From assembly GCA_964544225.1 (NCBI GenBank), contig CAZIZK010000001.1, forward strand, positions 271,477 to 335,476: a stretch of DNA of 64,000 bases. The letters are read 5' to 3'. Source of the stretch: an uncultured Candidatus Saccharibacteria bacterium (GTDB lineage: Bacteria; Patescibacteriota; Minisyncoccia; Phycocordibacterales; UBA9973). The translations under genes and the position numbers were made by a program. Within the stretch, counting starts at the first letter, position 1. Each line of letters opens with the position of its first letter. The notes beneath the pieces are model-generated. The model was not told where the DNA came from and did not search any database. It was given only the letters and a program-made list of their open reading frames with translations. Shown here in pieces: positions 1 to 36,283 of the stretch.

Positions 1-187
1 CTGAATATCCAGATTTTATAAAAAGTATTAATTACAAAACAAAGGTATATTTCTCAGATTCTACTGTTTTGCCAGAAGAATTATTAAAATTAGAAAAATA
101 CCAAGCTTGTATGATTAAAAATAACAACAAATTTGTTGTATCATTAGATTAATATGGGAAACTTAGGATAAATAATATAATAAATAT

Positions 188-1036
188 ATGGAATTTAAAA
201 ACAATTTTAGTCAAATCAAAAAAGCAGTAGAAAATAACAAAATGGAGACAGAAGATAATTCTCTTAAAAAAGATGATAATTGGCCACAATATGATTCACC
301 CCTATATGAATTTGGGGGAACTTTTGTTAAATCAATCCCTGCTGAGTACACAAACCACTTAGATAAAAAAATCTACGCAACCGTAGAAGAAACAGGAGAG
401 CCCTTTAAGCAATATATAGAGGCTACTCTTTCCAAAAGTAAAAATAAAGAGCTTTATGCCGTGGAGTTTGGAGGGTCTGGATCAAGATTGTTCCATGAAT
501 TTTCAAAGGGGTTTTTTGAAAGGACTGTTGGGGTATGTTTGGGAGATGAAAGATATACAGAAGAAAAGTTTAATGATGCAAAGAAAGGTCACGATGTAGT
601 AGAAGGTGATGTGCTTACTGTAAATGGGAATCCTATATATAAAGATATTGAAAACCGATTAGGTACTTCAAAAGTAGATTTAATTATTTCAAGAATGCAG
701 GGCCCTTTGTACTTTCTAGATAAAAATCCGGCAATCATGAATGCTTTGGTGAAGAAGTGGTACAGCATGCTAAACGAAAATGGTATTCTTTTTGCACAGT
801 TTGAATACATGAAAGAGCACAACCCAAATATGGAGCAAAAATATCAGTCAATAATTGAACCGGAAAATATTCGAGATTCTGAAATTCACGCCCAATACTG
901 GGTAGATGAAATAAAAAAGAGATACAATGGTTTAGTTGATGTTCAATTAGGAAGAGGGACTTTACGTCTACATAAAAATTTTGGTGCCCCTGAGGAAATA
1001 GAAAATATGCCAGACATGTTTGAGAAGAATAAATAA
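188..1036 (+). CDS. Hypothetical protein with a Rossmann-fold SAM-dependent methyltransferase-like core
   Basis: The 282-aa ORF carries motif I-like VEFGGSGS, motif II-like VDLIISR and motif III-like LNENGILF in the expected order and spacing. Its stop lies 1 nt before the start of the next gene, so the two are probably translationally coupled. Confidence 0.45.
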   Translation: MEFKNNFSQIKKAVENNKMETEDNSLKKDDNWPQYDSPLYEFGGTFVKSIPAEYTNHLDKKIYATVEETGEPFKQYIEATLSKSKNKELYAVEFGGSGSRLFHEFSKGFFERTVGVCLGDERYTEEKFNDAKKGHDVVEGDVLTVNGNPIYKDIENRLGTSKVDLIISRMQGPLYFLDKNPAIMNALVKKWYSMLNENGILFAQFEYMKEHNPNMEQKYQSIIEPENIRDSEIHAQYWVDEIKKRYNGLVDVQLGRGTLRLHKNFGAPEEIENMPDMFEKNK

Positions 1037-8863: not shown

Positions 8864-10150
8864 ATGGATAAAATCAAAAATATTTTAGAACAAACAAAGA
8901 GCAAGGCCAAAACTTGGTCAATCCGTAGAAAAGTTTTCTACGGATTTCTACTGGTAATAGCGATACTTTTATTAATAAAGGTTTTTGGTGGTAGCACGAG
9001 CCAGACGTATGTTTTCGATAGTGTTGTCCGTACTGATTTGTTGCAGAGCGTGAAGGCAACAGGCAGGGTAACTTCAAAGACTGACTTGTCACTGTCATTT
9101 AATTCATCGGGTGTGGTGAAGTCTGTTCGAGTTGAGGTAGGGAGCAAGGTATATCAGGGCCAAATACTTGCAACTCTCGACCAAGGAGCAGAGTCTGCTG
9201 ACGTAACTGTAGCTCGTGGCGCACTTGCTTCCGCCCAGGCAAAGTACAACAAGACTATTAGTGCTTATACAAATGAAGACATAGCTCTTACTCGAGTATT
9301 GTTAGACAATGCAAAGAAGGCTTATGACACAACTGTAGCTGAGCAGAACTCAATTGTAGAAAAATATTTTAATGAATTTTGGAAACAAAACGTAGACAAA
9401 CGTTATGTAGGTGCATACGATGAAGTAAGTAATGCTGAAAAGGCTCGTGATTCTGCTGTAGCCTCTGCTCAGGCATTGGTTGACCAACGCCAGGCTGAGC
9501 TCAATGTAAAGCTGGCATCTGCCAATAGTGCCGACGTTGCACTTGCAAATGCCGAGATAACTCAAGCCCAAGGCAAGCTAGAAGCAGCCCTTGCAAAGCT
9601 CGAGGACACAATCATCCGTGCTCCTGCAAACGGTACTATAACCAAAGTTGATACAAAGATCGGTGAATTATCACAAGTAAATACAGAAGTGATAGTCCTA
9701 CAAGATATATCTAATTTGTATATTGAGTCCGATATTAACGAAGCCAATATTGCCAATGTAAAGTTGGACCAAGTTGCAAAGTTTAGCTTCGACGCAATGC
9801 CAGGCAAAGATTTTATAGGTAAAGTGGTGCATATTGACCCATCTGCTACAACATCAGACGGTGTAGTGAACTACAAGATCAAGTCATCTATCCCAAAAAG
9901 TGATGTCGACATCCGTGTCGGTATGAATGCCAATGTAGTCGTGATAGGCGGGGAGAAGCCGGGGGTACTAGCCCTACCAAAACAAGCTGTAAATGTTGTT
10001 GATGGTAAGAGTATGGTAAAGAAAGTTCTAAATGAAAAGAAGAAAACATTTCAGGATACAGAGGTGGTTACAGGCTTTCTGGGTGATGGTAACTTGATCG
10101 AGATAGTGAGTGGTCTGAATGAAGGTGACCGCATCACTTATACAAAATAA
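8864..10150 (+). CDS. Efflux transporter periplasmic adaptor subunit (HlyD/MacA family)
   Basis: N-terminal transmembrane anchor, long coiled-coil region and beta-barrel/lipoyl-like regions. It is followed by an FtsX-type permease and an ABC ATPase in a MacAB-like arrangement. Confidence 0.75.
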   Translation: MDKIKNILEQTKSKAKTWSIRRKVFYGFLLVIAILLLIKVFGGSTSQTYVFDSVVRTDLLQSVKATGRVTSKTDLSLSFNSSGVVKSVRVEVGSKVYQGQILATLDQGAESADVTVARGALASAQAKYNKTISAYTNEDIALTRVLLDNAKKAYDTTVAEQNSIVEKYFNEFWKQNVDKRYVGAYDEVSNAEKARDSAVASAQALVDQRQAELNVKLASANSADVALANAEITQAQGKLEAALAKLEDTIIRAPANGTITKVDTKIGELSQVNTEVIVLQDISNLYIESDINEANIANVKLDQVAKFSFDAMPGKDFIGKVVHIDPSATTSDGVVNYKIKSSIPKSDVDIRVGMNANVVVIGGEKPGVLALPKQAVNVVDGKSMVKKVLNEKKKTFQDTEVVTGFLGDGNLIEIVSGLNEGDRITYTK

Positions 10151-22579: not shown

Positions 22580-23047
22580 ATGGCACATATTCATGAAAAA
22601 ATAGATTTTACAGTAGAGGTATTTATTGTCCACAAGGATAAAGTGCTTCTTCGTATGCATGACAAGTTTAAATTCTGGCTTTCTATTGGTGGACATATCG
22701 AGCTCGATGAGGATCCAATACAGGCAGCGTATAGGGAAGTGAAAGAGGAGGTAGGTTTAGATATTAAAATAATAGGTAATGCAGAACCTGAAAGTATACG
22801 TACCGATGATTTCTACCCACTTATAAACCCTAGGTTCTTATGTAGGCATTTTGTGAACCCAACTCACGAGCATATTTGTTTTGTGTATTTTGCCACTACC
22901 GATAACCCAGAGACCCTCGATTCAGTGCTTGAACATGAACAAGGGGCAGAGACGAAGTGGTTTACAATGGATGATTTAGATAATACGGATTTGGTTCCAA
23001 ATGTCCGCTTCTACGCCAAAGAAGCCTTAAAAGAACTGGGTTCGTAG
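22580..23047 (+). CDS. Nudix hydrolase
   Basis: Nudix box GGHIELDEDPIQAAYREVKEEVG. Confidence 0.8.
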   Translation: MAHIHEKIDFTVEVFIVHKDKVLLRMHDKFKFWLSIGGHIELDEDPIQAAYREVKEEVGLDIKIIGNAEPESIRTDDFYPLINPRFLCRHFVNPTHEHICFVYFATTDNPETLDSVLEHEQGAETKWFTMDDLDNTDLVPNVRFYAKEALKELGS

Positions 23048-23065
23048 ATATGATATAATTCTCGT

Positions 23066-23758
23066 ATGAAGAAAGGCAAACTAATTGTAATAGACGGCAC
23101 AGATGGAAGTGGCAAGGCGACACAGGTCGCCCTTTTGAGTAAGAGGTTGGTGAAGGACGGGTACAAGGTAAAGAATGTAGACTTTCCAGAATATTACAAA
23201 AACTTTTTTGGTAAATTTATCGGCCACTGTTTGAGTGAGCAGTATTATAATTGGGTAAATATTCACCCAAAGATTGCATCGATTGCCTATGCTGCTGACA
23301 GATGGGAATCTTCAGAAGAGGTGAAGAAGTGGCTAGACAAAGGCTACATAATCCTTGCGAACCGTTATGTTAGTTCAAACCAAATCCACCAAGGTGGCAA
23401 GATAAAGAGTGCAGTAAAAAGGCAGGCATTTATCGAGTGGCTCGACGAAATGGAATACAAAGTTTTCAAGATTCCACGACCAGATGTCGTACTTTACTTG
23501 AGTTTATCAATGCCATTTATCAATAAACTAATAAAAGAGAGGAATAAGAACCAGAGTCGCGCATACCTAGGCAAGAAGAAGGATATAGTAGAAGGTGATA
23601 AGGAGTATATGTCCAATTCAATAAAGAGTGCATTGTGGCTTGCCAAGACCCAGAAGAATTATATGCAGATCGATTGTGCCCCGAAGAATGTATTGCGTAC
23701 CCGCGAAGATATCCATGAAGAAGTTTACAAAAATGTTTTAAAAGTTTTAAAGAAGTAA
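23066..23758 (+). CDS. tmk: Thymidylate kinase-like nucleoside monophosphate kinase
   Basis: P-loop IVIDGTDGSGKATQ at the N-terminus, DRW/ANRYVSS region and LID-like segment. Size is about 230 aa. Confidence 0.7.
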   Translation: MKKGKLIVIDGTDGSGKATQVALLSKRLVKDGYKVKNVDFPEYYKNFFGKFIGHCLSEQYYNWVNIHPKIASIAYAADRWESSEEVKKWLDKGYIILANRYVSSNQIHQGGKIKSAVKRQAFIEWLDEMEYKVFKIPRPDVVLYLSLSMPFINKLIKERNKNQSRAYLGKKKDIVEGDKEYMSNSIKSALWLAKTQKNYMQIDCAPKNVLRTREDIHEEVYKNVLKVLKK

Positions 23759-23787
23759 ATATTATAAATTAATTTTTTAGATAAATT

Positions 23788-24117
23788 ATGGAACTAAATG
23801 AATATCAAAAGAAGGCACTAACTACTGCTATGCACCCAGAGAAATATAATATTATTTATCCAGCACTTGGTTTGGGTAATGAAGCGGGGGAGGTTATGGG
23901 CAAGATAAAGAAGTGGCTCCGGGGTGATGATGGTGAACAGATGAGTGATGAAAGGAAGGATGCATTGAAAGGTGAGTTGGGTGATGTATTGTGGTACCTA
24001 GCAGTTTTGGCACATGATTTAGGGATAGAACTTGATGATGTTGCAAAATCAAATGTAGATAAACTTCAATCAAGAAAAGAGAGGGGGACAATACAAGGCG
24101 ATGGAGATATAAGATAA
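23788..24117 (+). CDS. MazG-like nucleoside triphosphate pyrophosphohydrolase (all-alpha NTP-PPase)
   Basis: EYQKKALTTA...LGLGNEAGEV...ELGDVLWYLAVLAHDLGIEL...KLQSR matches the MazG/HisE-like EExxE/D metal-binding helices. Confidence 0.75.
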   Translation: MELNEYQKKALTTAMHPEKYNIIYPALGLGNEAGEVMGKIKKWLRGDDGEQMSDERKDALKGELGDVLWYLAVLAHDLGIELDDVAKSNVDKLQSRKERGTIQGDGDIR

Positions 24118-24377: not shown

Positions 24378-26105
24378 ATGATACAAGACGAGATAAAAGC
24401 TCATATAGGTAAAGCCTTGCAGACTTTAGGGATAGAGGCAGGGGCTATAATACTCGAGCACCCAGCTGATATGGCCAATGGTGACTATTCGACCAATGTG
24501 GCTATGGCTTATGCCAAGGTGGCAGGCAAGAACCCAAAGGTTCTAGCAGAAGAAATAAAGCTCGAGATAGAGAAGGATCTACCAAAAGAAATAGAAAAGG
24601 TCACAGTAGCAGGTGCAGGATTTATTAACTTTTATTTATCTCGTGAATTTTTTACAAATGAAATTAGTGATATTTTAAATAAAGGTGGGGAGTGGGGCAA
24701 GAGTGAGATATCAAAAGGTAAAAAGATAATGGTAGAGTATACCGACCCAAACCCTTTCAAGCCTTTCCATATTGGCCACCTTATGACCAATGCCATAGGT
24801 GAGTCAGTGGCACGTATTGTCGAGTTCTCCGGGGCTACAACTGTCCGTGCAAATTATCAGGGCGATGTAGGCATGCACGTAGCAAAAGCAATATACGGTA
24901 TGTACAAGGCCGGCTCTCCGGCAGATGAATCTGCATCGGCTTCAGTTCTAGCTCAATACATAGGTGATTGTTATGCGAAGGGTAGCGATGCTTATGATAA
25001 TGACCCTGAGGCTAAAAAAGAAATCGAAGCTCTGAATAAAAAAGTTTACGACAGGAGCGATGCCGAAGTAAATAAAATATATGACTGGGGTCGCGAGGTG
25101 ACTCTAGAAGCATTCGAAGAAATATATAAAATCCTTGGGACAAAATTTAAACATTACTTTTTTGAAAGTGTGATGGCCCCAATAGGGGAGAAAATTGTAA
25201 GGGGTAATATGCCAAATGTTTTCGAGGAGTCCGATGGGGCAATAGTTTTTAAAGCAGAGAACTATGACCCAAAGTTGCATACCCGTGTATTCATTACATC
25301 ACTAGGCATACCATTGTACGAGACAAAGGAAATAGGCCTAACCATGACAAAGTTCGAAAAGGAGCAGGACCTAGACTTATCTATAGTAGTGACCGCTATT
25401 GAACAAGGCGAGTATATGAAAGTAGTAGCAAAGGCTATATCACTTATCCACCCAGAGTACGAGGCACGCATGAAGCATATTACTCACGGCATGATGCGCC
25501 TAACAAGTGGCAAGATGAGTTCACGCAAGGGTAATATTATTACTGGAGAGTCATTATTGCGCGACTCTATCGACACTGTTTATGAAAAGATGTCCGAGAG
25601 GGATTTGAGCGATGATGAGAAGAAGAGTATTGCAGAAGTAGTAGGTGTATCCGCACTAAAATATTCCATACTACGTTCATCACTAGGGTCGGATATTATT
25701 TATGATTCTGAAAAGTCTATATCTTTCGAAGGTGACTCGGGCCCGTACCTACAATACACAGCGGTGCGTGCACGAGCGATTCTGAACAAGATAGAAGAAT
25801 CGCAATTACAAATTACGAATGACGAATTACGAAACAAAGCCCCAGAATCTACAACTGTTTTGGAGAAAATGTTGTATCAATTCCCCGAAGTTGTTGCCCG
25901 CACGTATACAGAACTTGAGCCACATCATATAGCAACATACGCTACCGAGCTTGCAAGTAGCTTCAATAGTTTCTATGGCAATACTCATATACTAAATGAT
26001 GAAAATGAACATAAGGTTTACCACCTAGCTCTTGTGCAAGCTTTCCACACTACAATGCAAAACGCCCTCTACCTCCTAGGCATCCAAACCCCAAATAAAA
26101 TGTAA
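24378..26105 (+). CDS. argS: Arginyl-tRNA synthetase
   Basis: Class I HIGH motif (PFHIGHL), KMSSRKGN (KMSKS-like) and the ArgRS anticodon-binding C-terminus. Confidence 0.93.
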   Translation: MIQDEIKAHIGKALQTLGIEAGAIILEHPADMANGDYSTNVAMAYAKVAGKNPKVLAEEIKLEIEKDLPKEIEKVTVAGAGFINFYLSREFFTNEISDILNKGGEWGKSEISKGKKIMVEYTDPNPFKPFHIGHLMTNAIGESVARIVEFSGATTVRANYQGDVGMHVAKAIYGMYKAGSPADESASASVLAQYIGDCYAKGSDAYDNDPEAKKEIEALNKKVYDRSDAEVNKIYDWGREVTLEAFEEIYKILGTKFKHYFFESVMAPIGEKIVRGNMPNVFEESDGAIVFKAENYDPKLHTRVFITSLGIPLYETKEIGLTMTKFEKEQDLDLSIVVTAIEQGEYMKVVAKAISLIHPEYEARMKHITHGMMRLTSGKMSSRKGNIITGESLLRDSIDTVYEKMSERDLSDDEKKSIAEVVGVSALKYSILRSSLGSDIIYDSEKSISFEGDSGPYLQYTAVRARAILNKIEESQLQITNDELRNKAPESTTVLEKMLYQFPEVVARTYTELEPHHIATYATELASSFNSFYGNTHILNDENEHKVYHLALVQAFHTTMQNALYLLGIQTPNKM

Positions 26106-26133: not shown

Positions 26134-27198
26134 TTGGAAGAAAAACAAACGATCATTATGGAAACACCAAAAATTGCCATTATTGGCGCGACAGGTCTTG
26201 TAGGCCAAACTCTTTTGAGTTTAATGGGGGAAAAGGATTTCTTTCATAAATTCATTCTAAAGGACAAGCTACTACTCGTGGCTTCGGACAATTCAGTAAA
26301 AAACAAATTAAAGTGTGATGTGCTGAATCACCAAATTCAGGTTATTACACTGGAAGAAGCTTTGAAAGAAAAGCCCGACATTGTAATAATGTCCGCAGGA
26401 GAGAAAATTTCCGCAGAGTGGGCAATTAAGTTCAGGAATGCGAACAAAGATTCGTGGGTGATAGATAATTCACCGCAATGGAGAATGAAGGATCATATTC
26501 CACTAACACTTCCGCATCTCAACTGGAGTCCCAACAAAAAGCACCGGATCATTCCAGTACCGAACTGCGTAGCTGTAATGCTTGCAACAGCATTATACCC
26601 GCTTACAAAAGAGGATTTGAAATTGTATTACGTGTCTGCAACAGTAATGCAAAGTGTATCTGGCACAGGCAATACTGGTATCGATGCTTGGGAAAAGGAG
26701 TTGGAGAATGGTGGCAATAAAAAAGCCAAAGATTCCCCATATCTTTTTCAGTCTTTAGGGAACATTCAGCAGGCAACCCGTGTAAAGGAAGGGGAAAATT
26801 ATAATGATGAAGAGAAAAAAGTGATTGCAGAAATGCAGAAACTTTTTTATCCGAACTTTCAGAAATTTCCAATCAGTCCATCGTGCTTCCGTGATGGTGT
26901 AAAGGTAGGGCACTGGGCACGTGTTCGTGTAAAGATGCCACTTCGTGCAACACTAAAGCGTGTAAAAGGCGCCTTGAGTATGGGTTCTATAGTGAAATAT
27001 ACCGATAAGCCAACTGACATTTTGTCGGTGGTCGGTAAAAATTATGCCTTGGTGTACGACCTTCGTGTAGATGAACACGCCGGTGATGCAAATTATGCAT
27101 GGTATGAATTTACCGTAGTCTCTGACAATTTGCGTTTAGGTGCTGCATCTACCGCACTATTGTGTGCGGAAAAAATAATCAAAAAGTTCTACAAGTAA
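26134..27198 (+). CDS. asd: Aspartate-semialdehyde dehydrogenase
   Basis: N-terminal NAD(P)-binding IIGATGLVGQ, active-site Cys motif PNCVAVMLATAL (compare GGNCTVSLM) and VMQSVSGTG. Confidence 0.7.
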   Translation: MEEKQTIIMETPKIAIIGATGLVGQTLLSLMGEKDFFHKFILKDKLLLVASDNSVKNKLKCDVLNHQIQVITLEEALKEKPDIVIMSAGEKISAEWAIKFRNANKDSWVIDNSPQWRMKDHIPLTLPHLNWSPNKKHRIIPVPNCVAVMLATALYPLTKEDLKLYYVSATVMQSVSGTGNTGIDAWEKELENGGNKKAKDSPYLFQSLGNIQQATRVKEGENYNDEEKKVIAEMQKLFYPNFQKFPISPSCFRDGVKVGHWARVRVKMPLRATLKRVKGALSMGSIVKYTDKPTDILSVVGKNYALVYDLRVDEHAGDANYAWYEFTVVSDNLRLGAASTALLCAEKIIKKFYK

Positions 27199-27221
27199 AA
27201 TGGTAGAACGAATCATAAAAG

Positions 27222-27252
27222 GCTTGTCCATGTGACAGGTCTTTTTTTTCTT
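27222..27252 (+). terminator. Putative terminator after asd
   Basis: cttgtc-catgt-gacagg hairpin followed by tcttttttttc. Confidence 0.4.
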
Positions 27253-27284
27253 GCAAAATTTGGGTTTTAGGGTATGATTTGGGT

Positions 27285-27465
27285 ATAAGTCATTAGAGGC
27301 TATCACCTCTAGAGCTTGCAATCTTGCAGGCAGGCTTTGGGAAGAAAGCCGTAAGGGCCGTAGAACCCACGAAATGAGAGCCCGAGAGGGAAACAAGGTG
27401 GTACCGCGAGAAGCTCGTCCTTGTATAACAATTTGTATTGTTGTACGTGGACGAGTTTTTTTTAT
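27285..27465 (+). promoter_or_regulatory. T-box riboswitch leader (Ile specifier) upstream of ileS
   Basis: Conserved T-box sequence aaacaaGGTGGTACCGCGag at 27391-27410. Terminator stem ctcgtcc...ggacgag plus a U8 run at 27414-27463. The small Stem-I hairpin tagaggctATCAcctcta presents AUC followed by a purine. Confidence 0.75.
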
Positions 27466-27484
27466 TAACCCAAATTATTTTATT

Positions 27485-30400
27485 ATGAACACACAAAAAG
27501 GAAATCAAGACCCCGAAAGAACTAACGATTCACTAAGTGAATCTACTTCTAACGGGGTAGGTAAATCTACAAACGCAAAAAGGGAAGAGAGTGTATTGGA
27601 GTTTTGGAAAGAGAATGACACTTTCAACAAGTCTCTGACAAAGGAGGCTCCAAAGGGAACTTACGTTTTCTACGATGGGCCACCATTTGCCACTGGCTTG
27701 CCACACTACGGCCACATACTAGGTAGTACTGCAAAGGATGTAATAGGGCGCTATCAGACAATGCGTGGCTTCCACGTGCCTAGGCGCTGGGGTTGGGATT
27801 GTCATGGTCTACCTATCGAGAATATTGTCGAGAAGGAACTAGGCATATCAGGGCGTAAAGCTATCGAGGAATTCGGCGTAGATAAATTCGCCGAGCATGC
27901 ACGCAGTGCTGTTTTGAAATATGTAGGCGAATGGAAGAAGACGGTGGACCGCATGGGTCGCTGGGTAGACTTCGACAACTCTTACAAGACCATGGACAAT
28001 AGCTTTATCGAGAGTGTCTGGTGGGCACTGGGGCAGATGAATGATAAAGAACTACTTTACGAGGGTGTGCGTGTATTGGCATACTGTCCACGTTGTGAGA
28101 CTCCAATAGCCAATAGTGAAATTGCTATGGATAACAGTTATAAAGATATAACTGATATTTCTGTTTATGTAAAGTTCAAAGTTGTTGGGCAGGATCATAC
28201 ATATCTACTAGCTTGGACTACAACACCGTGGACTTTGCCGGGTAACACTGCAATAGCGGTAAATAAAGATATTGATTATGTTTATGTGAAGACTAAAAAT
28301 AATGGTGGTGGGCACGACCATCTAATAGTGGCAAAGAACCTTTTTGATAAATTGAAAGATAAATTTACAGATCCGGAGATATTGAAGGAAGTGAAGGGGA
28401 GTGAATTGGTAGGCATGCAATACGAACCGGTGTTTGATTATTATAAAGATGTGGATATGCCAAACAAGGAAAATATTTGGCGTGTATGGCATGCAGATTT
28501 TGTAACAGATGACGCCGGTACAGGTATTGCCCACGAGGCCCCAGCATTTGGTGAGGATGATATGAACCTGGCAAAGGAACACAATATTCCATTTATAAGG
28601 CACGTAGAACCGAACGGGTTCTTTACCAAAGAGGTTACCGACTTCCCCGATGTAAAGGCCAAGCCAAAGGAGGACCCACAATCAACCGATGTATTGGTGA
28701 TAAAATATTTAGCACACAAAGGCTCACTATTTGCAAAGGAAAAGATCGTGCACTCATACCCACACTGCTATCGCTGCGATACGCCACTTCTGTATTACGC
28801 ATTGCCTTCATGGTTCATAAATGTGCAGAAGGTAAAGGCCGATGCATTGAAGAATGCCGAGGCTATGAATTGGGTCCCAAGCCATCTGAAAGAGGGTAGG
28901 TTCAAGCATATTATGGAGGGGGCGCCGGATTGGACAATATCTCGCAATCGATTTTGGGCGAGCCCTTTGCCATTCTGGAAGTCCGAGGGTGGTAAATTGA
29001 TGATAGTAAACTCTCTTGATGACCTGAAGAGCAAGGTAAAGAGGAGTGGAAACAGGTATTTCATAGTGCGTCATGGTGAAGCACAACACAATGTAGATAA
29101 TAGAATAAGTTATAAAGACGAGGCAGGCGACTTGCTTACTGACAAGGGCATAGCGCAGGCGGTAGATGTGGCTGATAAATTAAAACACTTTAATGTTACA
29201 AAAGTTTTTGCATCACGATTTGCCCGTACAAACCAAACAGCAGAAATAATTGTAGACAGTATCGGTGTAGCAAAAGACAGTATAAAGCACGATGAAAGAC
29301 TGATAGAGTTGAATCCAGGAGTTTATGATGGCCAAACATGGGAGAAGAGAAATGATTGGGCGTATAATCAACCGAGTTACTATCATGCAGCACCCGAGGG
29401 TGGCGAGAGTCATCAGGATGCAAAGAATAGATTTGGAGATTTTATTTACGAATTAGAAAGTAAGTATCAGAATGAAAATATATTGATCGTTACTCATGGT
29501 ATTGGCCTTGAAGTTTTGCCAGCAGTAGCATTGGCTGCTGATGAGGTAACATCATTCAATATATATAGGGACAACCCACACAACCCATGCACATTGATTG
29601 ATCTAGATTTCTTTCCACTACCACATAATGCACACTACGAGCTTGATTTACACAGGCCATATATTGACGCGATAAAGTTAGTAGACCATGAGGGTACCGA
29701 GTATACTCGTGTTCCTGAAGTTATCGACTGTTGGTTCGAGTCGGGTTCGATGCCTTTTGCCCAGGACCACTATCCATTTGAAAGGCCAAATTGGGAGAAG
29801 GAGAACTTCCCAGCAGGGTTCGTGGCTGAATATATTGCCCAGACACGTACATGGTTCTACTACACACATATAATATCGAGCACTTTGTTTGGTCATGCAC
29901 CATTCCAGAATGTGGTAACCACAGGAACCATACTTGCCGAAGATGGTAGCAAGATGAGTAAGTCAAAGAATAATTATCCAGACCCACAAATACTTTTTGA
30001 TAAGTATGGGGTAGATGCATTGCGCTTCTACCTTATGTCTTGCCCTGTAATGAAGGGGGAGGATGTAGCCTTTACCGAGAAGACTGTGCAAGAGATATCG
30101 AGCAAGATAGTAGGCAGATTGGAAAATGTTACAACATTTTATGAACTTTATAGAGATGTAAAACTAGAAACTAGCAACAAGAACCTAAAACCTAATAATG
30201 TTTTGGACAAGTGGATCTTGTCACGTCTTGCTGAGTTGGTTGTGGAAGTAACCGACGGCATGGAGGCATATGATATGGTTCTAGCCACACGACCTTTTGA
30301 ATTGTTTATTGAAGATTTGTCTACATGGTACCTACGCCGATCACGAGATAGACTGAAGGATGGTGACACTGAAGCCTTGGCTACTTTGTACCACGTACTG

Positions 30401-30997
30401 AAAACTACAGTTACACTCATAGCACCATTTACACCATTTATAGCCGAGGATATCTGGCAGAGGTTGAAGCTTGGTAATGATGTGGAGAGTGTGCACCTAG
30501 CAGACTGGCCCGCAGCAGATGGCGAGGCAGATAAAGTTGTATTGGAAGAGATGCAAGAAGTGCGCGACATAGTAACAGTAGGTTTGCAAATGAGACAGAA
30601 AGCGGGTATCAAAGTTCGCCAGCCACTTTCAAAAATAATTGTTACAAAATCAAATCTTACTTCTGAATACAAAGAAATATTGAAAGATGAATTGAATGTA
30701 AAGGATGTAGTAGTGGGTGATGAACTAGGTTTGGATACCGAGATAACTCCTGATCTAAAGCGCGAGGGTGATTATCGCGAGCTTGTTCGTGCTGTCCAAG
30801 ATGGCAGGAAGAACATGGGTCTAATACCTGCCGATGTGGTGATTGTAACTATATCTGTAAATGCACAAGATTTAGTAGAAGAATTTATAACCGAGTTCAA
30901 AAAGACAGTGGGTGCAGGTGCTGTAAACTTTGCCGATAATGATGGAGACGAGGTAAAGGTAGGGGATATGAAGGTTAATATAAAGATTGAAAAATAA
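27485..30997 (+). CDS. ileS: Isoleucyl-tRNA synthetase (type 2) with an inserted histidine-phosphatase (PGAM-like) domain
   Basis: HIGH motif (PHYGHIL), CP1 editing-domain motifs (TGIAHEAPAFGEDD, WTISRNRFWASPLPFW) and KMSKS. A ~195-aa insert between MIVNSLDDLKSKVK and ELDLHRPYID carries RHGEAQHN and LIVTHGIGLEV. The real start is at 27485; the upstream in-frame stretch is the T-box leader. Confidence 0.93.
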   Translation: MNTQKGNQDPERTNDSLSESTSNGVGKSTNAKREESVLEFWKENDTFNKSLTKEAPKGTYVFYDGPPFATGLPHYGHILGSTAKDVIGRYQTMRGFHVPRRWGWDCHGLPIENIVEKELGISGRKAIEEFGVDKFAEHARSAVLKYVGEWKKTVDRMGRWVDFDNSYKTMDNSFIESVWWALGQMNDKELLYEGVRVLAYCPRCETPIANSEIAMDNSYKDITDISVYVKFKVVGQDHTYLLAWTTTPWTLPGNTAIAVNKDIDYVYVKTKNNGGGHDHLIVAKNLFDKLKDKFTDPEILKEVKGSELVGMQYEPVFDYYKDVDMPNKENIWRVWHADFVTDDAGTGIAHEAPAFGEDDMNLAKEHNIPFIRHVEPNGFFTKEVTDFPDVKAKPKEDPQSTDVLVIKYLAHKGSLFAKEKIVHSYPHCYRCDTPLLYYALPSWFINVQKVKADALKNAEAMNWVPSHLKEGRFKHIMEGAPDWTISRNRFWASPLPFWKSEGGKLMIVNSLDDLKSKVKRSGNRYFIVRHGEAQHNVDNRISYKDEAGDLLTDKGIAQAVDVADKLKHFNVTKVFASRFARTNQTAEIIVDSIGVAKDSIKHDERLIELNPGVYDGQTWEKRNDWAYNQPSYYHAAPEGGESHQDAKNRFGDFIYELESKYQNENILIVTHGIGLEVLPAVALAADEVTSFNIYRDNPHNPCTLIDLDFFPLPHNAHYELDLHRPYIDAIKLVDHEGTEYTRVPEVIDCWFESGSMPFAQDHYPFERPNWEKENFPAGFVAEYIAQTRTWFYYTHIISSTLFGHAPFQNVVTTGTILAEDGSKMSKSKNNYPDPQILFDKYGVDALRFYLMSCPVMKGEDVAFTEKTVQEISSKIVGRLENVTTFYELYRDVKLETSNKNLKPNNVLDKWILSRLAELVVEVTDGMEAYDMVLATRPFELFIEDLSTWYLRRSRDRLKDGDTEALATLYHVLKTTVTLIAPFTPFIAEDIWQRLKLGNDVESVHLADWPAADGEADKVVLEEMQEVRDIVTVGLQMRQKAGIKVRQPLSKIIVTKSNLTSEYKEILKDELNVKDVVVGDELGLDTEITPDLKREGDYRELVRAVQDGRKNMGLIPADVVIVTISVNAQDLVEEFITEFKKTVGAGAVNFADNDGDEVKVGDMKVNIKIEK

Positions 30998-31950
30998 TGC
31001 TAGAAGAAAAATCATATGGAATAATATTGGTCCTTCGTAAAGAGAATGAAGAGGACCGTTATTTGATATTGAAGCAAAATACAAATACACAACACTGGAG
31101 CTATCCAAAAGGTCACGCTGAGGGTGATGAAGGGAAGAAAGAAACTGCACTTCGTGAATTAGAAGAGGAGACAGGTATTACAGATATAAAGTTTGCGAAC
31201 CTACCAAGCTTGTTCGAGAATTATCAGCATGAGAAAGATGGAAAGGTTTACAATAAAACAAATGAGTTTTTTATCGCGTTTACTGATAGTGACAAAGTAA
31301 CAATTCAAGCAGAGGAAGTTTTGGAATATAAATGGGCTACATATGATGAAGCCATGCAGACTTTTACATATGAAGAGCCAAAGAAACTTTTGAAAAATGT
31401 TCGTGAATATCTGGACCCAAATGGTTTAGGTAAAGATCTGGGTGTATTAAATGAATTTAATTTAACCGAATCTGATATAAAAAACTTTAAGTATCGTTAT
31501 GTTGCTCGTGCCGTGGTTGTAACACCAGAAGGTAATATAGTCCTTGTAAATACTACAAAGTGGGGAACTTATATTATTCCAGGTGGTGGTATAGAAGATA
31601 TGGAGACAATACTCGAAGCTACTATTCGTGAAGTAAAAGAGGAAACAGGTTATGATGCTGAAGTTATAAGACCTTTGGGCAATTTGTCTGTATACATACC
31701 GGAAAATGATTCACATAAAGGGCGTATATCGAAAACTTTTACATATCTTATGCGTGCAGTAGGTGAAAAGGGGGAGACGATGTATACCGAAGATGAGTTA
31801 TCTTTTGATTATGCTGTCAGCTCGCACCCGTACGATGAAGCATATGAATTATTATTGAAAGATGCAAAGAAGTTGGGGTTAAACAGTCATGCAAATAGGT
31901 CGCTCGTATTCTTTGAAGAAGCAAAGAAGTACTTAGAAAATGGAAAATAA
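30997..31950 (+). CDS. Tandem-Nudix hydrolase (two Nudix domains)
   Basis: Two Nudix boxes: KGHAEGDEGKKETALRELEEETGI and PGGGIEDMETILEATIREVKEETGY. The start codon overlaps the ileS stop (TAATG). Confidence 0.8.
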   Translation: MLEEKSYGIILVLRKENEEDRYLILKQNTNTQHWSYPKGHAEGDEGKKETALRELEEETGITDIKFANLPSLFENYQHEKDGKVYNKTNEFFIAFTDSDKVTIQAEEVLEYKWATYDEAMQTFTYEEPKKLLKNVREYLDPNGLGKDLGVLNEFNLTESDIKNFKYRYVARAVVVTPEGNIVLVNTTKWGTYIIPGGGIEDMETILEATIREVKEETGYDAEVIRPLGNLSVYIPENDSHKGRISKTFTYLMRAVGEKGETMYTEDELSFDYAVSSHPYDEAYELLLKDAKKLGLNSHANRSLVFFEEAKKYLENGK

Positions 31951-32569
31951 AAAGCAAAAAATTGTAATGTTTGATTTTGATGGAGTGTTGGTTAACACTT
32001 GTGAATTTTGGTATAAGATACACAAGGATAAAAATGAAGGCCTAACATGGGAAAGGTTTTCTTCTATGAGTAATGGTAACTTTATTGAGACACAAAATGA
32101 GATGATGGAAAAGAATGAATATGTTTGGCCTATAGGTTCAGAGGCTCATTATATAGAAGCATTAAATTCGGTCTTTTCTATCGAAGACATCCTTCATGAT
32201 TGCGTGTTAAATCTATCAAATAATTATATTGTTGTAATTGTTTCTTCAGCTTCAAATAAAGTGATATCAGGTTTTTTAGAAAAGGAAAATTTACGTGAAT
32301 GCTTCTCAGATGTTTTTGGGTATGAGTTTCATTACAAGAAAACAGAAAAGATAAAACATTTACTGGATAAATATAATCTGAGCCCAAAGGATGCTGTATT
32401 TATTACTGACACATTAGGTGATGTGGTAGAGGCAACGGAATGCGGTGTCAGGTCTATAGCTATTACATGGGGTTTACACAAGGCAGATACTTTTAAGAGG
32501 GGTAACCCAGAGTTGATTTTAGATGACCCAACAAAACTTCAAGAAGAAATAGAAAAAATGCTTCCGTAA
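31940..32569 (+). CDS. HAD-superfamily phosphatase/hydrolase
   Basis: Motif I MFDFDGVLVNT, motif II-like VVIVSSAS and motif IV-like ITDTLGDV. It overlaps the Nudix gene end, so the two are probably coupled. Confidence 0.8.
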   Translation: MENKKQKIVMFDFDGVLVNTCEFWYKIHKDKNEGLTWERFSSMSNGNFIETQNEMMEKNEYVWPIGSEAHYIEALNSVFSIEDILHDCVLNLSNNYIVVIVSSASNKVISGFLEKENLRECFSDVFGYEFHYKKTEKIKHLLDKYNLSPKDAVFITDTLGDVVEATECGVRSIAITWGLHKADTFKRGNPELILDDPTKLQEEIEKMLP

Positions 32570-32626
32570 ATACGGAAGCATTTTGAATTTACATCCAGCT
32601 CCTTAGGCGCTGAATAGGGATGAAAA

Positions 32627-32866
32627 TCATCTTAGGTCTTGAAAGGCCCAGCCACGGTTAATTGTGGATTCATTGAATTTTTTTCTTTCCATCTCCTCTT
32701 TTTCTTTACATTTTTGCTCATAGCGCAATTTGTACTTTGGAGAGAAAAAGCAAAGAATCTTGGTTGGTATATCTTTTATATACCACAAGATGAATACAAT
32801 TAGTAATAGAAGGGCAAATAGAAATAGCCCAAGTAAACCAGCGATGTTGTTGATGATGTTTTTCAT
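32627..32866 (-). CDS. Hypothetical small membrane protein
   Basis: 79-aa ORF with one transmembrane helix (LLGLFLFALLLLIVFILWYI) and a charged C-terminus. Confidence 0.3.
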   Translation of the reverse strand: MKNIINNIAGLLGLFLFALLLLIVFILWYIKDIPTKILCFFSPKYKLRYEQKCKEKEEMERKKFNESTINRGWAFQDLR

Positions 32867-34381: not shown

Positions 34382-36283
34382 ATGGCAGAATCTAAGAACC
34401 CACTGCATAGAATCGAAGATATAAAGCGTAAACTCTACGAAAGAGGCTTTTCTTCCGAGTTGCACCACAAGGAGGGTGTATTGCATGCGGTACCTCATGA
34501 TGTACCAAATACTTGGGAGGGGGCCGAAGGTAATACACTAAAAAGCACTCATGTATCTATTGCAAAGAAGTTCTTCATCGGGGCGGTACTGTTCTTCATC
34601 GGGGCGATATTCTTCGGTGTATATATGTATATGAGCGGGACTCGCACAGTGTCCAGTGACAATATCGAGATCAATATATTAGGTAATGCCTTTACCGAAG
34701 GTGGCGAGGAGTTGCCACTACAGATAGAGATAATCAATCACAACAATGCCGCACTCGAACTTGCAAATATGGTTATCGAATATCCAAAAGGTGCTTCGAC
34801 CTCGGCTGTGGAAACACCTGACTCACTAATACGTCTACCAAAAGAAAATATTGGAACTATCCCCGCAGGTGGCAGGGTGGAGAAGGCGAAGAAGGTCACA
34901 TTGTATGGCGACCAGAACACGGTCCGCAATGTAAAGGTTATCCTGGAGTACCACCCAGCTGGCTCGAATGCAATATTTACAAAAGAAAAGATTTATCCAG
35001 TTACTATTAACTCTTCACCGATTACACTATCTGTTGATGGTCCAATACAGACAACTTCCGGACAGGAGATCACCCTGAATATTACAGCCACATTAAATAC
35101 TACATTACCAGAGGGCGACACCATGTTGTCAGTAGCATATCCAAATGGATTCAAATTTACTAATGCAGTGCCACAGCCAGTGTTCGGAAGTTCAGTGTGG
35201 AACCTAAATGCTCTTGCAGTAGGCAAGCCTATATCTATTGCCATAAAGGGTACTATGAATGGCCAGAACGGTGACGAGCAAGCCTTTCATATATATGTAG
35301 GTACTACAAAAGGCATGAACAAATCCGTTGTCGATGTTGTTTACAATTCACTACTACACACTGTGTCACTACAGAAGCCTTTCTTGCAGGCAACGATACT
35401 TCTCGACGGGGCGAACCTGGATACTTATTCTACATCGGGCGGGCGTATGATACGTGGACAAGTATTGTGGGCCAACAATTTGCAATCAACCATTTTAGAT
35501 GGCGAAGTGAGTGTTACATTTAGTGGTAATATTTTTGATAAGGAGTCTGTGGTACCTGAAGAAGGCTTCTATGACTCTGTAAATAATCGTATTGTATGGA
35601 ATAGGAATACTACTCCAGAATTTGCGACGCTAGCACCAGGGGCAACAGGGTATCTTAATTTTGAATTCACCCCTGCATCTGTTATAGGTTCGAACCAGAC
35701 TATTCGTGATCCCCAAGTAGTGCTCGATGTTAGTATCAAAGGGCGCGAATCTACATCGGGATCAACAATATCTGAAATCAACAATTTCGCAAAGAAGATA
35801 GTCCGCCTTGCATCAGACTTTCAGCTAGTAGCACGTGCAAATTATGCAAGTGGGGAACTGCCTCCAAAAGCCGAGAAGGATACCGTATACACTATATACT
35901 GGACACTATCGAACTCTATCAACCCTGTATCACAGGCCGAGGCCAGGGCAGAACTGCCTGTGTATATGGACTGGGTGGGTATGGCCAATGGTAGCAAAGA
36001 GGCCGTAACATATGATAAACTAACTCGTCAGATAGTATGGAATATAGGTACAGTCAGGCAGAACACTGGGTTCGGGTCCAACAACAGGGAAGCCGCTTTT
36101 AATATAAAGCTTCGCCCATCTGTATCCCAAGTAGGTAGCGTGCCAAATATTATAAAAGAGGTCACTCTGACTGGTATTGACTCGTTCTCCAACAGTGGAC
36201 TACGATCTGTAAAGCAGTCACTTAGTACCAGACTGGAAAATGATTCCAATTTCCAAAACGGCGATGAAAAGGTAATAAGATAA
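34382..36283 (+). CDS. Membrane-anchored large extracellular beta-rich protein (hypothetical surface protein)
   Basis: Short cytoplasmic N-terminus, one transmembrane helix (FFIGAVLFFIGAIFFGVYMYM) and ~550 aa of repetitive Thr/Ser/Asn-rich beta-strand-like sequence. Confidence 0.55.
   Translation: MAESKNPLHRIEDIKRKLYERGFSSELHHKEGVLHAVPHDVPNTWEGAEGNTLKSTHVSIAKKFFIGAVLFFIGAIFFGVYMYMSGTRTVSSDNIEINILGNAFTEGGEELPLQIEIINHNNAALELANMVIEYPKGASTSAVETPDSLIRLPKENIGTIPAGGRVEKAKKVTLYGDQNTVRNVKVILEYHPAGSNAIFTKEKIYPVTINSSPITLSVDGPIQTTSGQEITLNITATLNTTLPEGDTMLSVAYPNGFKFTNAVPQPVFGSSVWNLNALAVGKPISIAIKGTMNGQNGDEQAFHIYVGTTKGMNKSVVDVVYNSLLHTVSLQKPFLQATILLDGANLDTYSTSGGRMIRGQVLWANNLQSTILDGEVSVTFSGNIFDKESVVPEEGFYDSVNNRIVWNRNTTPEFATLAPGATGYLNFEFTPASVIGSNQTIRDPQVVLDVSIKGRESTSGSTISEINNFAKKIVRLASDFQLVARANYASGELPPKAEKDTVYTIYWTLSNSINPVSQAEARAELPVYMDWVGMANGSKEAVTYDKLTRQIVWNIGTVRQNTGFGSNNREAAFNIKLRPSVSQVGSVPNIIKEVTLTGIDSFSNSGLRSVKQSLSTRLENDSNFQNGDEKVIR

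Follow-up and report, generated by a model that had tools for sequence, protein, structure and literature searches.

The analysed stretch of 64,000 nucleotides, referred to here as the window, comes from a tiny-genome bacterium (Patescibacteria) and carries the gene for an isoleucyl-tRNA synthetase (IleRS), ileS. This gene is preceded by a T-box leader and followed by a gene for a protein with two Nudix domains and a gene for a HAD phosphatase (Table 1). We placed the ileS start at the ATG at 27485, in agreement with the gene call of the source contig (1170 aa); the mechanically derived start at 27374 runs into the leader. A terminator-like hairpin divides the upstream asd-like gene from the ileS unit. 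The putative promoter of this unit has counterparts in front of the orthologous leaders, where similar TTGC-type -35 and TAT-rich -10 sequences are found in the equivalent position. As the sequence-only reading of this DNA had noted, the ends of the three genes overlap, by a TAATG at the ileS/Nudix junction (30995-30999) and by 11 nt at the Nudix/HAD junction (ATG 31940, TAA 31948-31950).

Table 1. Features of the ileS locus, with positions in the window
Feature	Position	Strand	Remarks
Terminator-like hairpin with T-run	27217-27245	+	downstream of asd-like gene
Promoter-like site	27251-27278	+	TTGCAA-16-TATGAT; consensus match only, putative function
T-box leader	27291-27463	+	5' of ileS
Stem I	27295-27310	+	5-bp hairpin AGAGG/CCUCU, 6-nt apical loop CUAUCA
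Additional hairpin, between Stems I and II	27314-27331	+	in few leaders only (window, L002, L015, L028, L031)
Stem II	27338-27369	+	lower helix UGGG/CCCA; upper helix variable
Stem III	27381-27390	+	CCC-GAGA-GGG; optional, missing from most orthologous leaders
Antiterminator	27394-27423	+	includes T-box motif; 7-nt bulge UGGUACC
Intrinsic terminator	27414-27463	+	hairpin 27414-27455, U8 run 27456-27463
ileS	27485-30997	+	type-2 isoleucyl-tRNA synthetase, 1170 aa
Histidine-phosphatase domain	29006-29626	+	His_Phos_1, PhoE-like; IleRS residues 508-714
Two-Nudix gene, fused	30997-31950	+	317 aa
Nudix domain A	residues 1-145		Nudix box nt 31111-31179
Nudix domain B	residues ~150-317		Nudix box nt 31585-31653
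HAD-IA phosphatase gene	31940-32569	+	COG0546/PGP-PpaX-like, 209 aa; DxD motif D12-F-D14
Palindromic 13-bp hairpin	32555-32584	.	across HAD stop codon
Convergent gene	32627-32866	-	79 aa

No terminator was found between the ileS, Nudix, and HAD reading frames. Since the three frames are packed with overlaps and without an intervening terminator, co-transcription under the T-box would be the natural reading. A single transcription unit would then lead from the promoter through a minimal Ile T-box attenuator, ileS, the two-Nudix gene and the HAD gene to the palindromic hairpin, which is likely a bidirectional terminator common to the HAD gene and the convergent gene. Alternatively, the Nudix and HAD genes could be driven by an internal promoter of their own and be largely independent of the T-box. 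A promoter-like TTGAAA-17-AATCAT is situated on the ileS/Nudix junction (30987-31015), and in some orthologous loci ileS and the Nudix gene are separated by a spacer of 65-89 nt. However, the region contains no more promoter-like matches than chance would give (15 found, 17.0 expected), and overlapping junctions are typical of coupled expression; we regard an internal promoter as unlikely.

All elements of the Ile-specifier T-box leader with terminator claimed by the sequence-only reading could be located. The T-box motif GGTGGTACCGCG has a single exact occurrence (27397-27408). The isoleucine specifier AUC (27302-27304), followed by a purine (A27305), lies in the hairpin loop of Stem I, and the lower helix of Stem II encloses a conserved, S-turn-like internal loop (GAAGAA...GUAGAA). 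In the terminator, CTCGTCC (27414-27420) pairs with GGACGAG (27449-27455), followed directly by the T8 stretch. The CUCGUCC strand is common to terminator and antiterminator, and the leader fold switches between the two forms. Folding energies of -23.7 kcal/mol for the terminator and -69.8 kcal/mol for the full leader (z -6.2) were calculated. The terminator stops 22 nt short of the ileS ATG and covers no ribosome-binding site. The leader has no long Stem I, with no K-turn, AG bulge or distal loop platform recognisable, and Stems II and III are separated by only 11 nt, which cannot form a Stem IIA/B pseudoknot. The Rfam T-box model gave no match in the window at its gathering score; in permissive mode the 3' half of the leader aligns, with 30.6 bits against a gathering score of 93 (RF00230). 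Because the gathering score is not reached, the T-box call rests on comparative evidence.

From orthologous ileS leaders we built a search model (R1). It detected 26 leaders, all directly 5' of ileS (E 1e-23 to 2e-6) and seven of them outside the training set; with four more from independently sampled loci the number rises to 30, spanning IleRS identities down to 42%. The specifier AUC is invariant in all 30 leaders, the next base being A or G, and in 29 of them it lies in the apical loop of a Stem I of 4-5 bp. In the alignment 96.6% of the cells are paired and 12 of 18 pairs show compensatory changes, a level reached by none of 500 shuffles (slid controls stayed at or below 58.6%); such changes were seen in all four modelled pairs of Stem I and in three of four pairs of Stem II (helix 2). 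Terminators of -21 to -40 kcal/mol with a U-run, sharing a strand with the antiterminator, are kept in nearly all leaders. When 26 leaders were read through by eye, four of them (L005, L017, L032, and L037) showed an F-box-like element. The gathering score of RF00230 was passed by none of nine orthologous leaders and by the ileS leader of an Armatimonadota locus (L047, 97.1 bits). About a third of the related ileS loci lack such a leader altogether. Together, conservation and covariation argue for a real T-box of a non-canonical, minimal type.

With the canonical transcriptional T-box (RF00230; e.g. the Armatimonadota L047 leader) the window leader shares the T-box 14-mer, an antiterminator with a 7-nt bulge, a terminator mutually exclusive with it, and a specifier matching the regulated gene; it differs in the missing long Stem I and the low score. 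The actinobacterial "ultrashort Stem I" T-boxes (Sherwood, Grundy & Henkin 2015; 6UFG, 6UFM), as cited in a review (PMC7583486), likewise regulate ileS. They share a truncated Stem I that lacks the elbow-binding double-T-loop platform and displays AUC with a 3' purine in its apical loop, an S-turn-like internal loop in Stem II, and a standard T-box bulge with discriminator. They act on translation, with a sequestrator over the Shine-Dalgarno sequence, and require the Stem IIA/B pseudoknot, whereas the window leader has a strong terminator with U8, cannot form the pseudoknot and belongs to a different phylum, the Patescibacteria. This minimal transcriptional type appears to be undescribed.

Judging from this anatomy and from established T-box biology, the leader would act by transcription attenuation. 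The free 3' NCCA end of uncharged tRNA would pair with UGGU in the T-box bulge and stabilise the antiterminator, blocking the competing terminator; charged tRNA would be unable to pair, and transcription would stop at the U-run. According to the review (PMC7583486), transcriptional T-boxes generally need an elbow-binding long Stem I and those with a short Stem I need the IIA/B pseudoknot. Since both are absent, efficient co-transcriptional capture of the tRNA by the window leader is not assured. Alternatively, the leader could be a decaying or a translational T-box rather than a working attenuator: the Stem I distal platform is missing, the pseudoknot is absent in most members, both elements are regarded as important for tRNA binding, and about a third of the related loci are leaderless, as stated above. 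Sequence and structure are, however, conserved with compensatory changes in 30 leaders of widely diverged synthetases, the terminator with its U-run is retained in nearly all, and its distance from the ATG leaves the ribosome-binding site uncovered. We consider decay or translational control highly improbable.

The synthetase itself was identified with 862 bits (TIGR00392, cut-off 621), and the HYGH, KMSKS, and TTTPWT motifs are invariant in the IleRS sequences. It is colinear with the type-2 IleRS (IleRS2, MupA/MupB-like) of Priestia megaterium (8c8u) in its catalytic, editing, anticodon-binding and C-terminal domains (E 2.9e-218); the cut-offs of the MupA and MupB models themselves were not reached (700 and 670 bits against 1900). 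Unlike 8c8u, it carries about 200 residues in place of a loop of about 10 residues (467-477). This insert splits tRNA-synt_1 and matches Pfam His_Phos_1 (residues 526-687, nt 29060-29545, E 5.6e-30); its nearest solved relative is PhoE (E 1.6e-13). Like the broad-specificity phosphatase PhoE of Geobacillus (1ebb/1h2e) and other phosphatase-type members of the histidine-phosphatase family (TIGAR, CobC, PspA, and fructose-2,6-bisphosphatase), it has the RHG nucleophile motif, a second His, two Arg, and a Glu (R529, H530, R581, E608, R649, H671), but it is nested inside an aminoacyl-tRNA synthetase instead of being free-standing. The insert was modelled at pLDDT 85-94. The full-length model (pTM 0.50) is too poor to show where the phosphatase site lies with respect to the synthetic one. 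The PGAM-like insert had been recognised by the sequence-only reading; its clade-wide spread and the non-canonical, minimal type of the T-box had been missed.

PF00300 is carried by all 120 best IleRS homologs, and the insert is present in all Paceibacteria-type ileS loci sampled and absent from the outgroups; the trait is fixed throughout the clade of Paceibacteria-type IleRS. The catalytic residues were kept in 42 of 42 sequences of one set. In a set of 43 sequences R529, H530, R581, R649, and H671 are retained without exception and E608 in all but one, although outside the closest relatives the domain has drifted to 35-57% identity, a pattern commonly seen at active sites under selection. 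The insert might nevertheless be a pseudo-enzyme recruited as a structural or tRNA-binding appendage. Idiosyncratic insertions in aminoacyl-tRNA synthetases often serve tRNA binding, e.g. the INS subdomain of IleRS2 (preprint 10.64898/2026.02.03.703510), and for the RHG domain of mycobacterial MutT1 no phosphatase activity was detected on pNPP or phospho-NDK (PMC11784022). In view of the retained residues we judge a non-catalytic insert very unlikely. The insert is a PhoE-like domain whose set of catalytic residues is intact, placed within a surface loop of the IleRS catalytic domain. This fusion of synthetase and phosphatase appears to be undescribed. An IleRS with a different additional enzyme domain, an N-acetyltransferase, is represented by NF040702 (ileS_w_GNAT); membership in this family was rejected (343 bits, cut-off 1999).

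The downstream protein contains two complete Nudix boxes (residues 39-61 and 197-219), as predicted. For domain A (residues 1-140) the six best matches among solved structures are all Ap4A hydrolases (E 1.9e-13 to 3.6e-9), comprising CT771, NUDT2, the C. elegans enzyme, and one putative Ap4A hydrolase, which supports the proposed Ap4A-hydrolase type for this domain. With these asymmetrically ApnA-cleaving enzymes it shares PKGH-x-E...RE-x-EE-GI and a conserved Tyr behind the box; this Tyr, 15 residues past the box, is invariant among the intact A-type boxes of the loci. Identity to the NUDT2/CT771 group is low, and unlike in that group the putative hydrolase domain has a second, unrelated Nudix domain as fusion partner. 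The two domains share 29% identity (E 4e-4), and domain B represents a second Nudix lineage. The tandem arrangement is indeed uncommon, with only three colinear full-length representatives among 1.84 billion. Mycobacterial MutT1, with an N-terminal Nudix and a C-terminal RHG domain, also associates a Nudix with a histidine-phosphatase module, and activity on oxidised GTP and diadenosine polyphosphates has been reported for it (PMC11784022); in the window the modules belong to separate polypeptides, the phosphatase being inside IleRS. Membership of the Nudix protein in the MutT1 family was rejected (NCBIfam MutT1, 50.8 bits, cut-off 475). The HAD protein matches HAD_2 with 56.9 bits (cut-off 23.8).

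In the model suggested by the sequence-only reading, the embedded phosphatase would act with the Nudix and HAD enzymes in a dedicated, co-regulated pathway that, with tRNA-Ile uncharged, destroys adenylylated by-products of the synthetase (Ap4A, Ap3A) or damaged nucleotides. The relatives of domain A, its invariant Tyr, and the MutT1 precedent agree with this, as does the outcome of the synteny comparison that the reading had called for: Nudix and HAD orthologs, when present, lie nearly always directly 3' of ileS (Nudix in L057-L060, among the closest metagenome relatives; HAD in four of four sampled). The orthologs are, however, facultative. The Nudix gene adjoins ileS in about 10 and the HAD gene in four of 29 species representatives, and most insert-bearing ileS loci have neither. 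The interval between ileS and recO also holds unrelated small hydrolases (Ser_hydrolase, MBL, HD-like), and in other phyla, where the NUDT2-like Nudix genes are more distant, these do not follow ileS. A T-box is present at 8 of 12 Nudix-adjacent loci compared with about 13 of 19 without an adjacent Nudix gene; the presence of Nudix and HAD is independent of the T-box. Because the whole argS...recO...proS region is syntenic, adjacency alone carries little weight. Furthermore, the substrates of histidine phosphatases are phosphomonoesters, and Ap4A breakdown has no obvious step that would need such an enzyme. The packed reading frames under the T-box and the Ap4A type of domain A thus hold, while a dedicated by-product pathway is doubtful.

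A conserved gene string ileS-[Nudix]-[HAD]-[MBL]-[Ser-hydrolase]-recO, of which different lineages would have lost different members, fits at least as well as a starvation-induced by-product system. Since the reading frames overlap in this genome, Nudix and HAD would be expressed with ileS and come under T-box control, a co-regulation that follows from their position and not from a conserved design. We hold it reasonably probable that one transcription unit, an attenuating minimal T-box, the IleRS-phosphatase fusion and a conserved gene string with losses together explain the locus, the minimal transcriptional T-box and the fusion being its noteworthy parts. That the Nudix and HAD orthologs are so strictly tied to the position behind ileS could also be due to real functional coupling rather than to inherited synteny alone.

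The three genes of the ileS unit, coding for an IleRS, a 317-aa protein with two Nudix domains (here A and B) and a HAD-IA hydrolase, are packed closely together (see table). As the sequence-only reading had stated, the ileS stop codon overlaps the next start codon in a TAATG, and the Nudix gene in turn overlaps the HAD gene by 11 nt. Judged from this gene packing, the simplest account would place the Nudix and HAD genes of this genome under the control of the ileS T-box. We infer cotranscription of the three genes, the steps leading from tRNA binding to read-through and all enzymatic activities discussed below. The mechanically called ORF start of ileS (27374) lies inside the leader. The window belongs to a metagenome contig of Patescibacteria (Paceibacteria/Nomurabacteria-like) origin: a Logan contig of unchanged gene order encodes an identical two-Nudix protein, and the nearest relatives of the IleRS all come from such MAGs. 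An internal promoter was considered and set aside after a scan in which promoter-like matches within the unit were at chance level (15 vs 17.0 expected).

Features of the ileS region (window positions)
Feature	Position or size	Basis or remark
argS	24378-26105	ORF listing and family scans
asd-like gene	26134-27198	ORF listing and family scans
Spacer between asd-like gene and ileS	286 nt	
Terminator-like hairpin after asd-like gene	27217-27245	
Promoter-like TTGCAA-16-TATGAT	27251-27278	
ileS	27485-30997	In-frame ATG 27485 matches gene call of source contig
Nudix protein, 317 aa	30997-31950	
HAD-IA hydrolase, 209 aa	31940-32569	
Palindromic 13-bp hairpin across HAD stop codon	32555-32584	
Convergent gene, 79 aa, then MBL-fold gene and recO	3' of HAD gene	

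The T-box motif GGTGGTACCGCG noticed before ileS occurs only once, at 27397-27408, and is indeed followed by a terminator (CTCGTCC...GGACGAG and eight T residues) ending at 27463. Near-matches to the 12-mer at 8987, 50093 and 53811 are consistent with chance and were discarded. With the Rfam T-box model RF00230 no match was obtained in the window at the gathering score (93 bits), and none of nine orthologous leaders was detected at this score. In permissive mode the window leader reached 30.6 bits vs 93, and only its 3' half, the T-box sequence and the antiterminator, aligned well; here AAGGUGGUACCGCGAG...CUCGUCCUU corresponds to model positions 176-219 with high posterior. As a control, the canonical ileS T-box of an Armatimonadota outgroup locus (L047) passed the gathering score with 97.1 bits.

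Since the gathering search had given no T-box match in the window and in the nine orthologous loci, we built our own covariance model. Fifty ileS loci were fetched from species-representative genomes, and the motif GGTGGTACC[G/A]CG was present 5' of ileS in most of the Paceibacteria-type loci. The model (R1) was trained on 19 leaders and recovered 26, seven of them outside the training set and all located directly 5' of ileS (E 1e-23 to 2e-6). Four further leaders were found in loci sampled later for another reason, giving a total of 30. A second leader copy was not found by R1 in the window. In the alignment of the 26 leaders, which was fitted to the model and hence favours structure, 96.6% of the cells are paired and 12 of the 18 pairs have changed on both sides. 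None of 500 shuffles reached these pairing and covariation values, and slid controls were paired to at most 58.6%. Helices 3-5 are 94-100% paired with compensatory changes present, in agreement with a T-box bulge in an antiterminator helix.

The leaders share a common order of elements. They begin with a Stem I of only 4-5 bp, the 6-nt loop of which reads NN-AUC-R. Next comes Stem II, formed by GGGAAGAA...GUAGAACCC, whose internal loop is S-turn-like and whose upper helix varies. After AAAUGAGA and a small Stem III, which may be absent, stand the T-box bulge with the antiterminator and finally a long terminator with a U-run. From Stem I to the antiterminator the leaders measure about 105-135 nt. 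The Ile specifier AUC is present in all 30 leaders 5' of ileS; the base after it is A in 23 and G in three of the 26 aligned leaders and A in all four later ones. The window leader has no long Stem I carrying an elbow-binding platform at its distal end (AG bulge and distal loop), and the 5' half of RF00230 fails to align to it. Among the leaders the specifier is located in the apical loop of the truncated Stem I with a single exception, L137. A Stem IIA/B pseudoknot with an F-box is not possible in the window because the gap between Stem II and Stem III is only 11 nt (27370-27380). By eye an F-box-like CCCGUUA or a related element was seen in 4 of the 26 leaders (L005, L017, L032, and L037).

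Terminator and antiterminator are mutually exclusive, the strand CUCGUCC being common to both. In the window the terminator has a predicted stability of -23.7 kcal/mol and is followed by U8; in nearly all folded leaders, likewise, the terminator (-21 to -40 kcal/mol) is followed by a U-run and shares the CUCGUCC strand with the antiterminator. When the window leader is cut before the 3' strand of the terminator, the predicted fold contains Stem I, Stem III and the bulged antiterminator as well as an extra hairpin, whereas the terminator forms in the complete leader (-69.8 kcal/mol, z -6.2). The expression platform consists of the hairpin and the U8, with 22 nt between its end and the ileS ATG. 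No start region lies within the helix, and sequestration of the ribosome-binding site by the platform was not found in the window leader. Two further pairings were set aside. The decoding domain could be closed by a long-range pairing of UCAUU (27290-27294) with AAUGA (27373-27377), but this helix is present in the window and L002 only, and the pairing of the specifier region with the T-box motif in the full-length MFE fold is without comparative support.

Apical-loop specifiers in "ultrashort" Stem I's have been described as a feature of the translational ileS T-boxes of actinobacteria (PMC7583486). Transcriptional T-boxes "generally require" a long Stem I with an elbow-binding platform for fast cotranscriptional tRNA capture, and short-Stem-I T-boxes depend on the IIA/B pseudoknot, deletion of which reduces tRNA binding about 1,200-fold (PMC7583486). 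The patescibacterial leaders share the apical-loop specifier on a truncated Stem I with the actinobacterial class, but the window leader lacks both the IIA/B pseudoknot and the sequestrator and has an intrinsic terminator instead. With the canonical T-box of RF00230 it has the UGGN bulge and antiterminator, the terminator and a matching specifier in common, whereas the long Stem I platform is missing. The 30 leaders combine a truncated Stem I with a classical terminator, and most of them appear to be without the pseudoknot. By its core features and predicted mechanism the leader is a T-box, and probably a new structural variant outside both described subclasses. In the literature searched we found no paper joining T-box riboswitches with Patescibacteria or CPR, although such an absence does not prove novelty. 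Few T-box decoding and discriminator units are as compact as these leaders, which provide a natural minimal scaffold on which to ask what is truly needed for tRNA recognition; such minimal Ile T-boxes are missed by Rfam-based annotation.

Some leaders deviate from the common plan. In L137 (1345-1490) a short distal hairpin stands above a side bulge that holds the AUC, the canonical topological position. This arrangement supports homology of the apical loop with the Specifier Loop, and the Stem I of L137 is intermediate and possibly links canonical and apical-loop specifiers in evolution. A minority of leaders carry an extra hairpin between Stem I and Stem II (window 27314-27331, L002, L015, L028, and L031), which in L002 is a perfect 11-bp palindrome. 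The more distant type-2 ileS of L045 (42% identity) lacks the phosphatase insert described below and yet keeps the minimal T-box type (L045:5723-5869; 60 bits with R1, undetected by Rfam), so that leaders of this type can occur independently of the insert. The contig of L055 starts (1-40) with GGACGAGGGAGGACGAGG, 5' of an ileS without detectable leader. This sequence resembles the 3' strand of the terminator, and since the contig is short the T-box may have been cut off.

The ileS product is a type-2 IleRS (TIGR00392, 862.5 bits vs cut-off 621.4) with P. megaterium IleRS2 structures as top PDB matches and with invariant class I signature and editing-domain motifs, H74-Y-G-H77, K823-M-S-K-S827, and T245-T-T-P-W249. 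The PGAM-like insert proposed from the sequence was recovered as Pfam His_Phos_1 (PF00300) at residues 526-687, splitting the tRNA-synt_1 match, with a domain score of 104.9 bits vs a cut-off of 21.7. Residues 508-714 are without counterpart in 8c8u, where about 10 residues (467-477) join the same flanks, and the insertion site lies between the conserved motifs W-x-ISRNR-x-W and DCWFESG. PF00300 was present in all 120 of the best homologs listed (60-97% identity). Among the fetched loci every Paceibacteria-type IleRS carries the insert and no outgroup type-2 IleRS does; the insert is very probably a clade-defining trait of the Paceibacteria-type enzyme.

Outside the closest relatives the insert domain is only 35-57% identical. 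An alignment of 42 proteins shows no variation at R529-H530-G531, R581, E608, R649, and H671, and in 43 locus-derived sequences the RHG nucleophile motif is kept throughout, H671, R581 and R649 are found in 43/43 and E608 in 42/43 (one Asp). The nearest solved relatives are of the phosphatase type, namely PhoE (E 1.6e-13), TIGAR, CobC, PspA, and fructose-2,6-bisphosphatase. From its residues, the insert is very probably an active phosphatase. An AlphaFold2 model of the full-length IleRS (42-sequence alignment) gave a pLDDT of 85-94 for the insert; this model did not reveal where the phosphatase site lies with respect to the synthetic site, with a pTM of 0.50 and a pLDDT below 50 in the catalytic core. 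An IleRS with a histidine phosphatase or PF00300 domain was described neither in the literature searched nor in a 2026 survey of IleRS domain evolution, which by itself is no proof of novelty. A phosphatase domain that is catalytically intact by its residues, is nested in the catalytic domain of an essential aminoacyl-tRNA synthetase and is fixed across a large uncultured lineage suggests an unrecognised second activity coupled to isoleucylation.

The 317-aa protein contains two complete Nudix boxes, as had been claimed (residues 39-61 and 197-219, fitting GX5EX7REUXEEXGU; Pfam NUDIX in two stretches, E 1.4e-33). For domain A (residues 1-140) the six best solved-structure matches are Ap4A hydrolases (CT771, NUDT2, the C. 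elegans enzyme and a putative one), with E-values of only 1e-13 to 4e-9 and no NCBIfam equivalog cut-off reached. A Tyr 15 residues after the box is invariant in all intact A-type boxes of the loci; a conserved Tyr about 15-18 residues after the Nudix box is reportedly the signature of ApnA hydrolases. Domain B gave generic Nudix matches only. An assignment as ADP-ribose-pyrophosphatase-like, based on a Pro 16 residues after the box, was rejected because the Pro is not conserved in homologous B domains. Being only 29% identical (E 4e-4), the two domains are regarded as separate lineages that have been fused. The HMMER search also returned single-domain proteins, of ~140 aa for the A type and ~180 aa for the B type, and the tandem architecture proved as uncommon as had been supposed, with only three colinear full-length relatives found exhaustively among 1.84 billion representatives. 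In L054 (3503-4883) a single A-type Nudix gene (141 aa) and a two-Nudix gene (300 aa) stand in tandem after ileS. The two-Nudix homolog P0126 (L052/L053) has a degenerate Nudix box in its A domain. The third protein of the unit is a HAD-IA hydrolase with the DxD motif FDFDG at residues 11-15 (HAD_2, 56.9 bits vs cut-off 23.8); no specific NCBIfam equivalog matched it at cut-off.

We considered two accounts of the association of these genes with ileS. In 29 species representatives with sequence 3' of ileS, an A-type Nudix gene comes next after ileS in about 10 and a HAD ortholog is present in four. In three loci recO follows immediately, and the remaining slots are occupied by Ser_hydrolase (14), MBL (7), HD-like and other small hydrolase genes. 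The slot order is consistent, ileS-Nudix-HAD-MBL-Ser_hydrolase-recO, with L004 as the one exception. Those rare homologs that have two Nudix domains (P0126, P0124 and P0123) are all encoded directly 3' of an ileS bearing His_Phos, and in three of the four loci the two-Nudix gene is followed by the HAD gene. In the reciprocal comparison, which started from the Nudix gene, the closest metagenome relatives (L057-L060) stand right after a His_Phos-ileS, and in L056 recO follows. Among 75 more distant relatives (32-42% identity) ileS was never found upstream of the Nudix gene; L102 and, weakly, L132 have an ileS-like match downstream instead. From the HAD family, which comprises 384 clusters at E ≤ 1e-10, all four sampled members (44-50% identity) lie immediately after a His_Phos-ileS, with MBL and/or other small genes between the HAD gene and recO.

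The T-box is found in 8 of the 12 Nudix-adjacent loci vs about 13 of the 19 others, and L006, L009, L013, L052/53, and L057 have Nudix and/or HAD without a leader. Presence of the T-box is independent of the gene content 3' of ileS. The proposed co-regulated system for by-products or damaged nucleotides under tRNA-Ile starvation is therefore upheld in one part, as orthologous Nudix and HAD genes keep their adjacency to ileS, and weakened in another, the association being facultative, variable in its slot and independent of the T-box. The most economical reading is that of a gene string inherited vertically, from which reduced genomes have lost different members, and adjacency alone establishes no link because the whole argS...proS region is equally syntenic. 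A real functional link of ileS with the Nudix and HAD genes nevertheless stays in play, given that these genes are strictly locked to ileS in position, that domain A resembles Ap4A hydrolases and that MutT1 sets a precedent for a pairing of Nudix and RHG-phosphatase (PMC11784022). Overall, what had been read from the sequence was confirmed as observation and partly supported as interpretation.

The functional link can be extended, though we regard the extension as improbable, to a class-wide bifunctional IleRS. The substrate of its embedded phosphatase would be a nucleotide or a phosphate at a tRNA 3' end, made at or delivered to the synthetase. The phosphatase would work in sequence with the positionally locked Ap4A-type Nudix and the HAD enzyme in a MutT1-like manner, and all would be switched on by a transcriptional T-box without elbow contact or IIA/B pseudoknot, both of which are regarded as necessary. 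Judged by sequence, the noteworthy parts of the locus are the minimal, putatively transcriptional and Rfam-invisible Ile T-box and the IleRS with its nested, by residues catalytic, histidine-phosphatase domain. The Nudix and HAD neighbours are less remarkable alone and are testable candidates for partner activities.

Further observations concern the neighbourhood of the unit, in which many genes for nucleotide house-cleaning enzymes are interleaved with aminoacyl-tRNA synthetase genes. Upstream of argS (window 22580-24117, from the gene table of L001, offset +20996) lie genes for a single-domain Nudix protein (155 aa), a thymidylate kinase/dNK and a MazG-type NTP pyrophosphohydrolase; in L052 the corresponding position is taken by Tmk and dUTPase. 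The asd-like gene (window 26134-27198), situated between argS and ileS, has a TTG start. Among 50 related loci only L037 has such a gene; apparently it was inserted sporadically where argS and ileS otherwise keep a conserved junction. The 79-aa predicted membrane protein (window 32627-32866, minus strand) converging on the HAD gene is kept in the closest relatives only (L001 and L002) and has the palindromic terminator at 32555-32584 in common with the HAD gene. Directly 3' of recO a protein of ~630 aa without Pfam match is encoded (window 34382-36283). A gene of 624-643 aa with no or a faint Pfam match takes this position in L052, L054, L055, and L136-L138, always 5' of a class II aminoacyl-tRNA synthetase gene.
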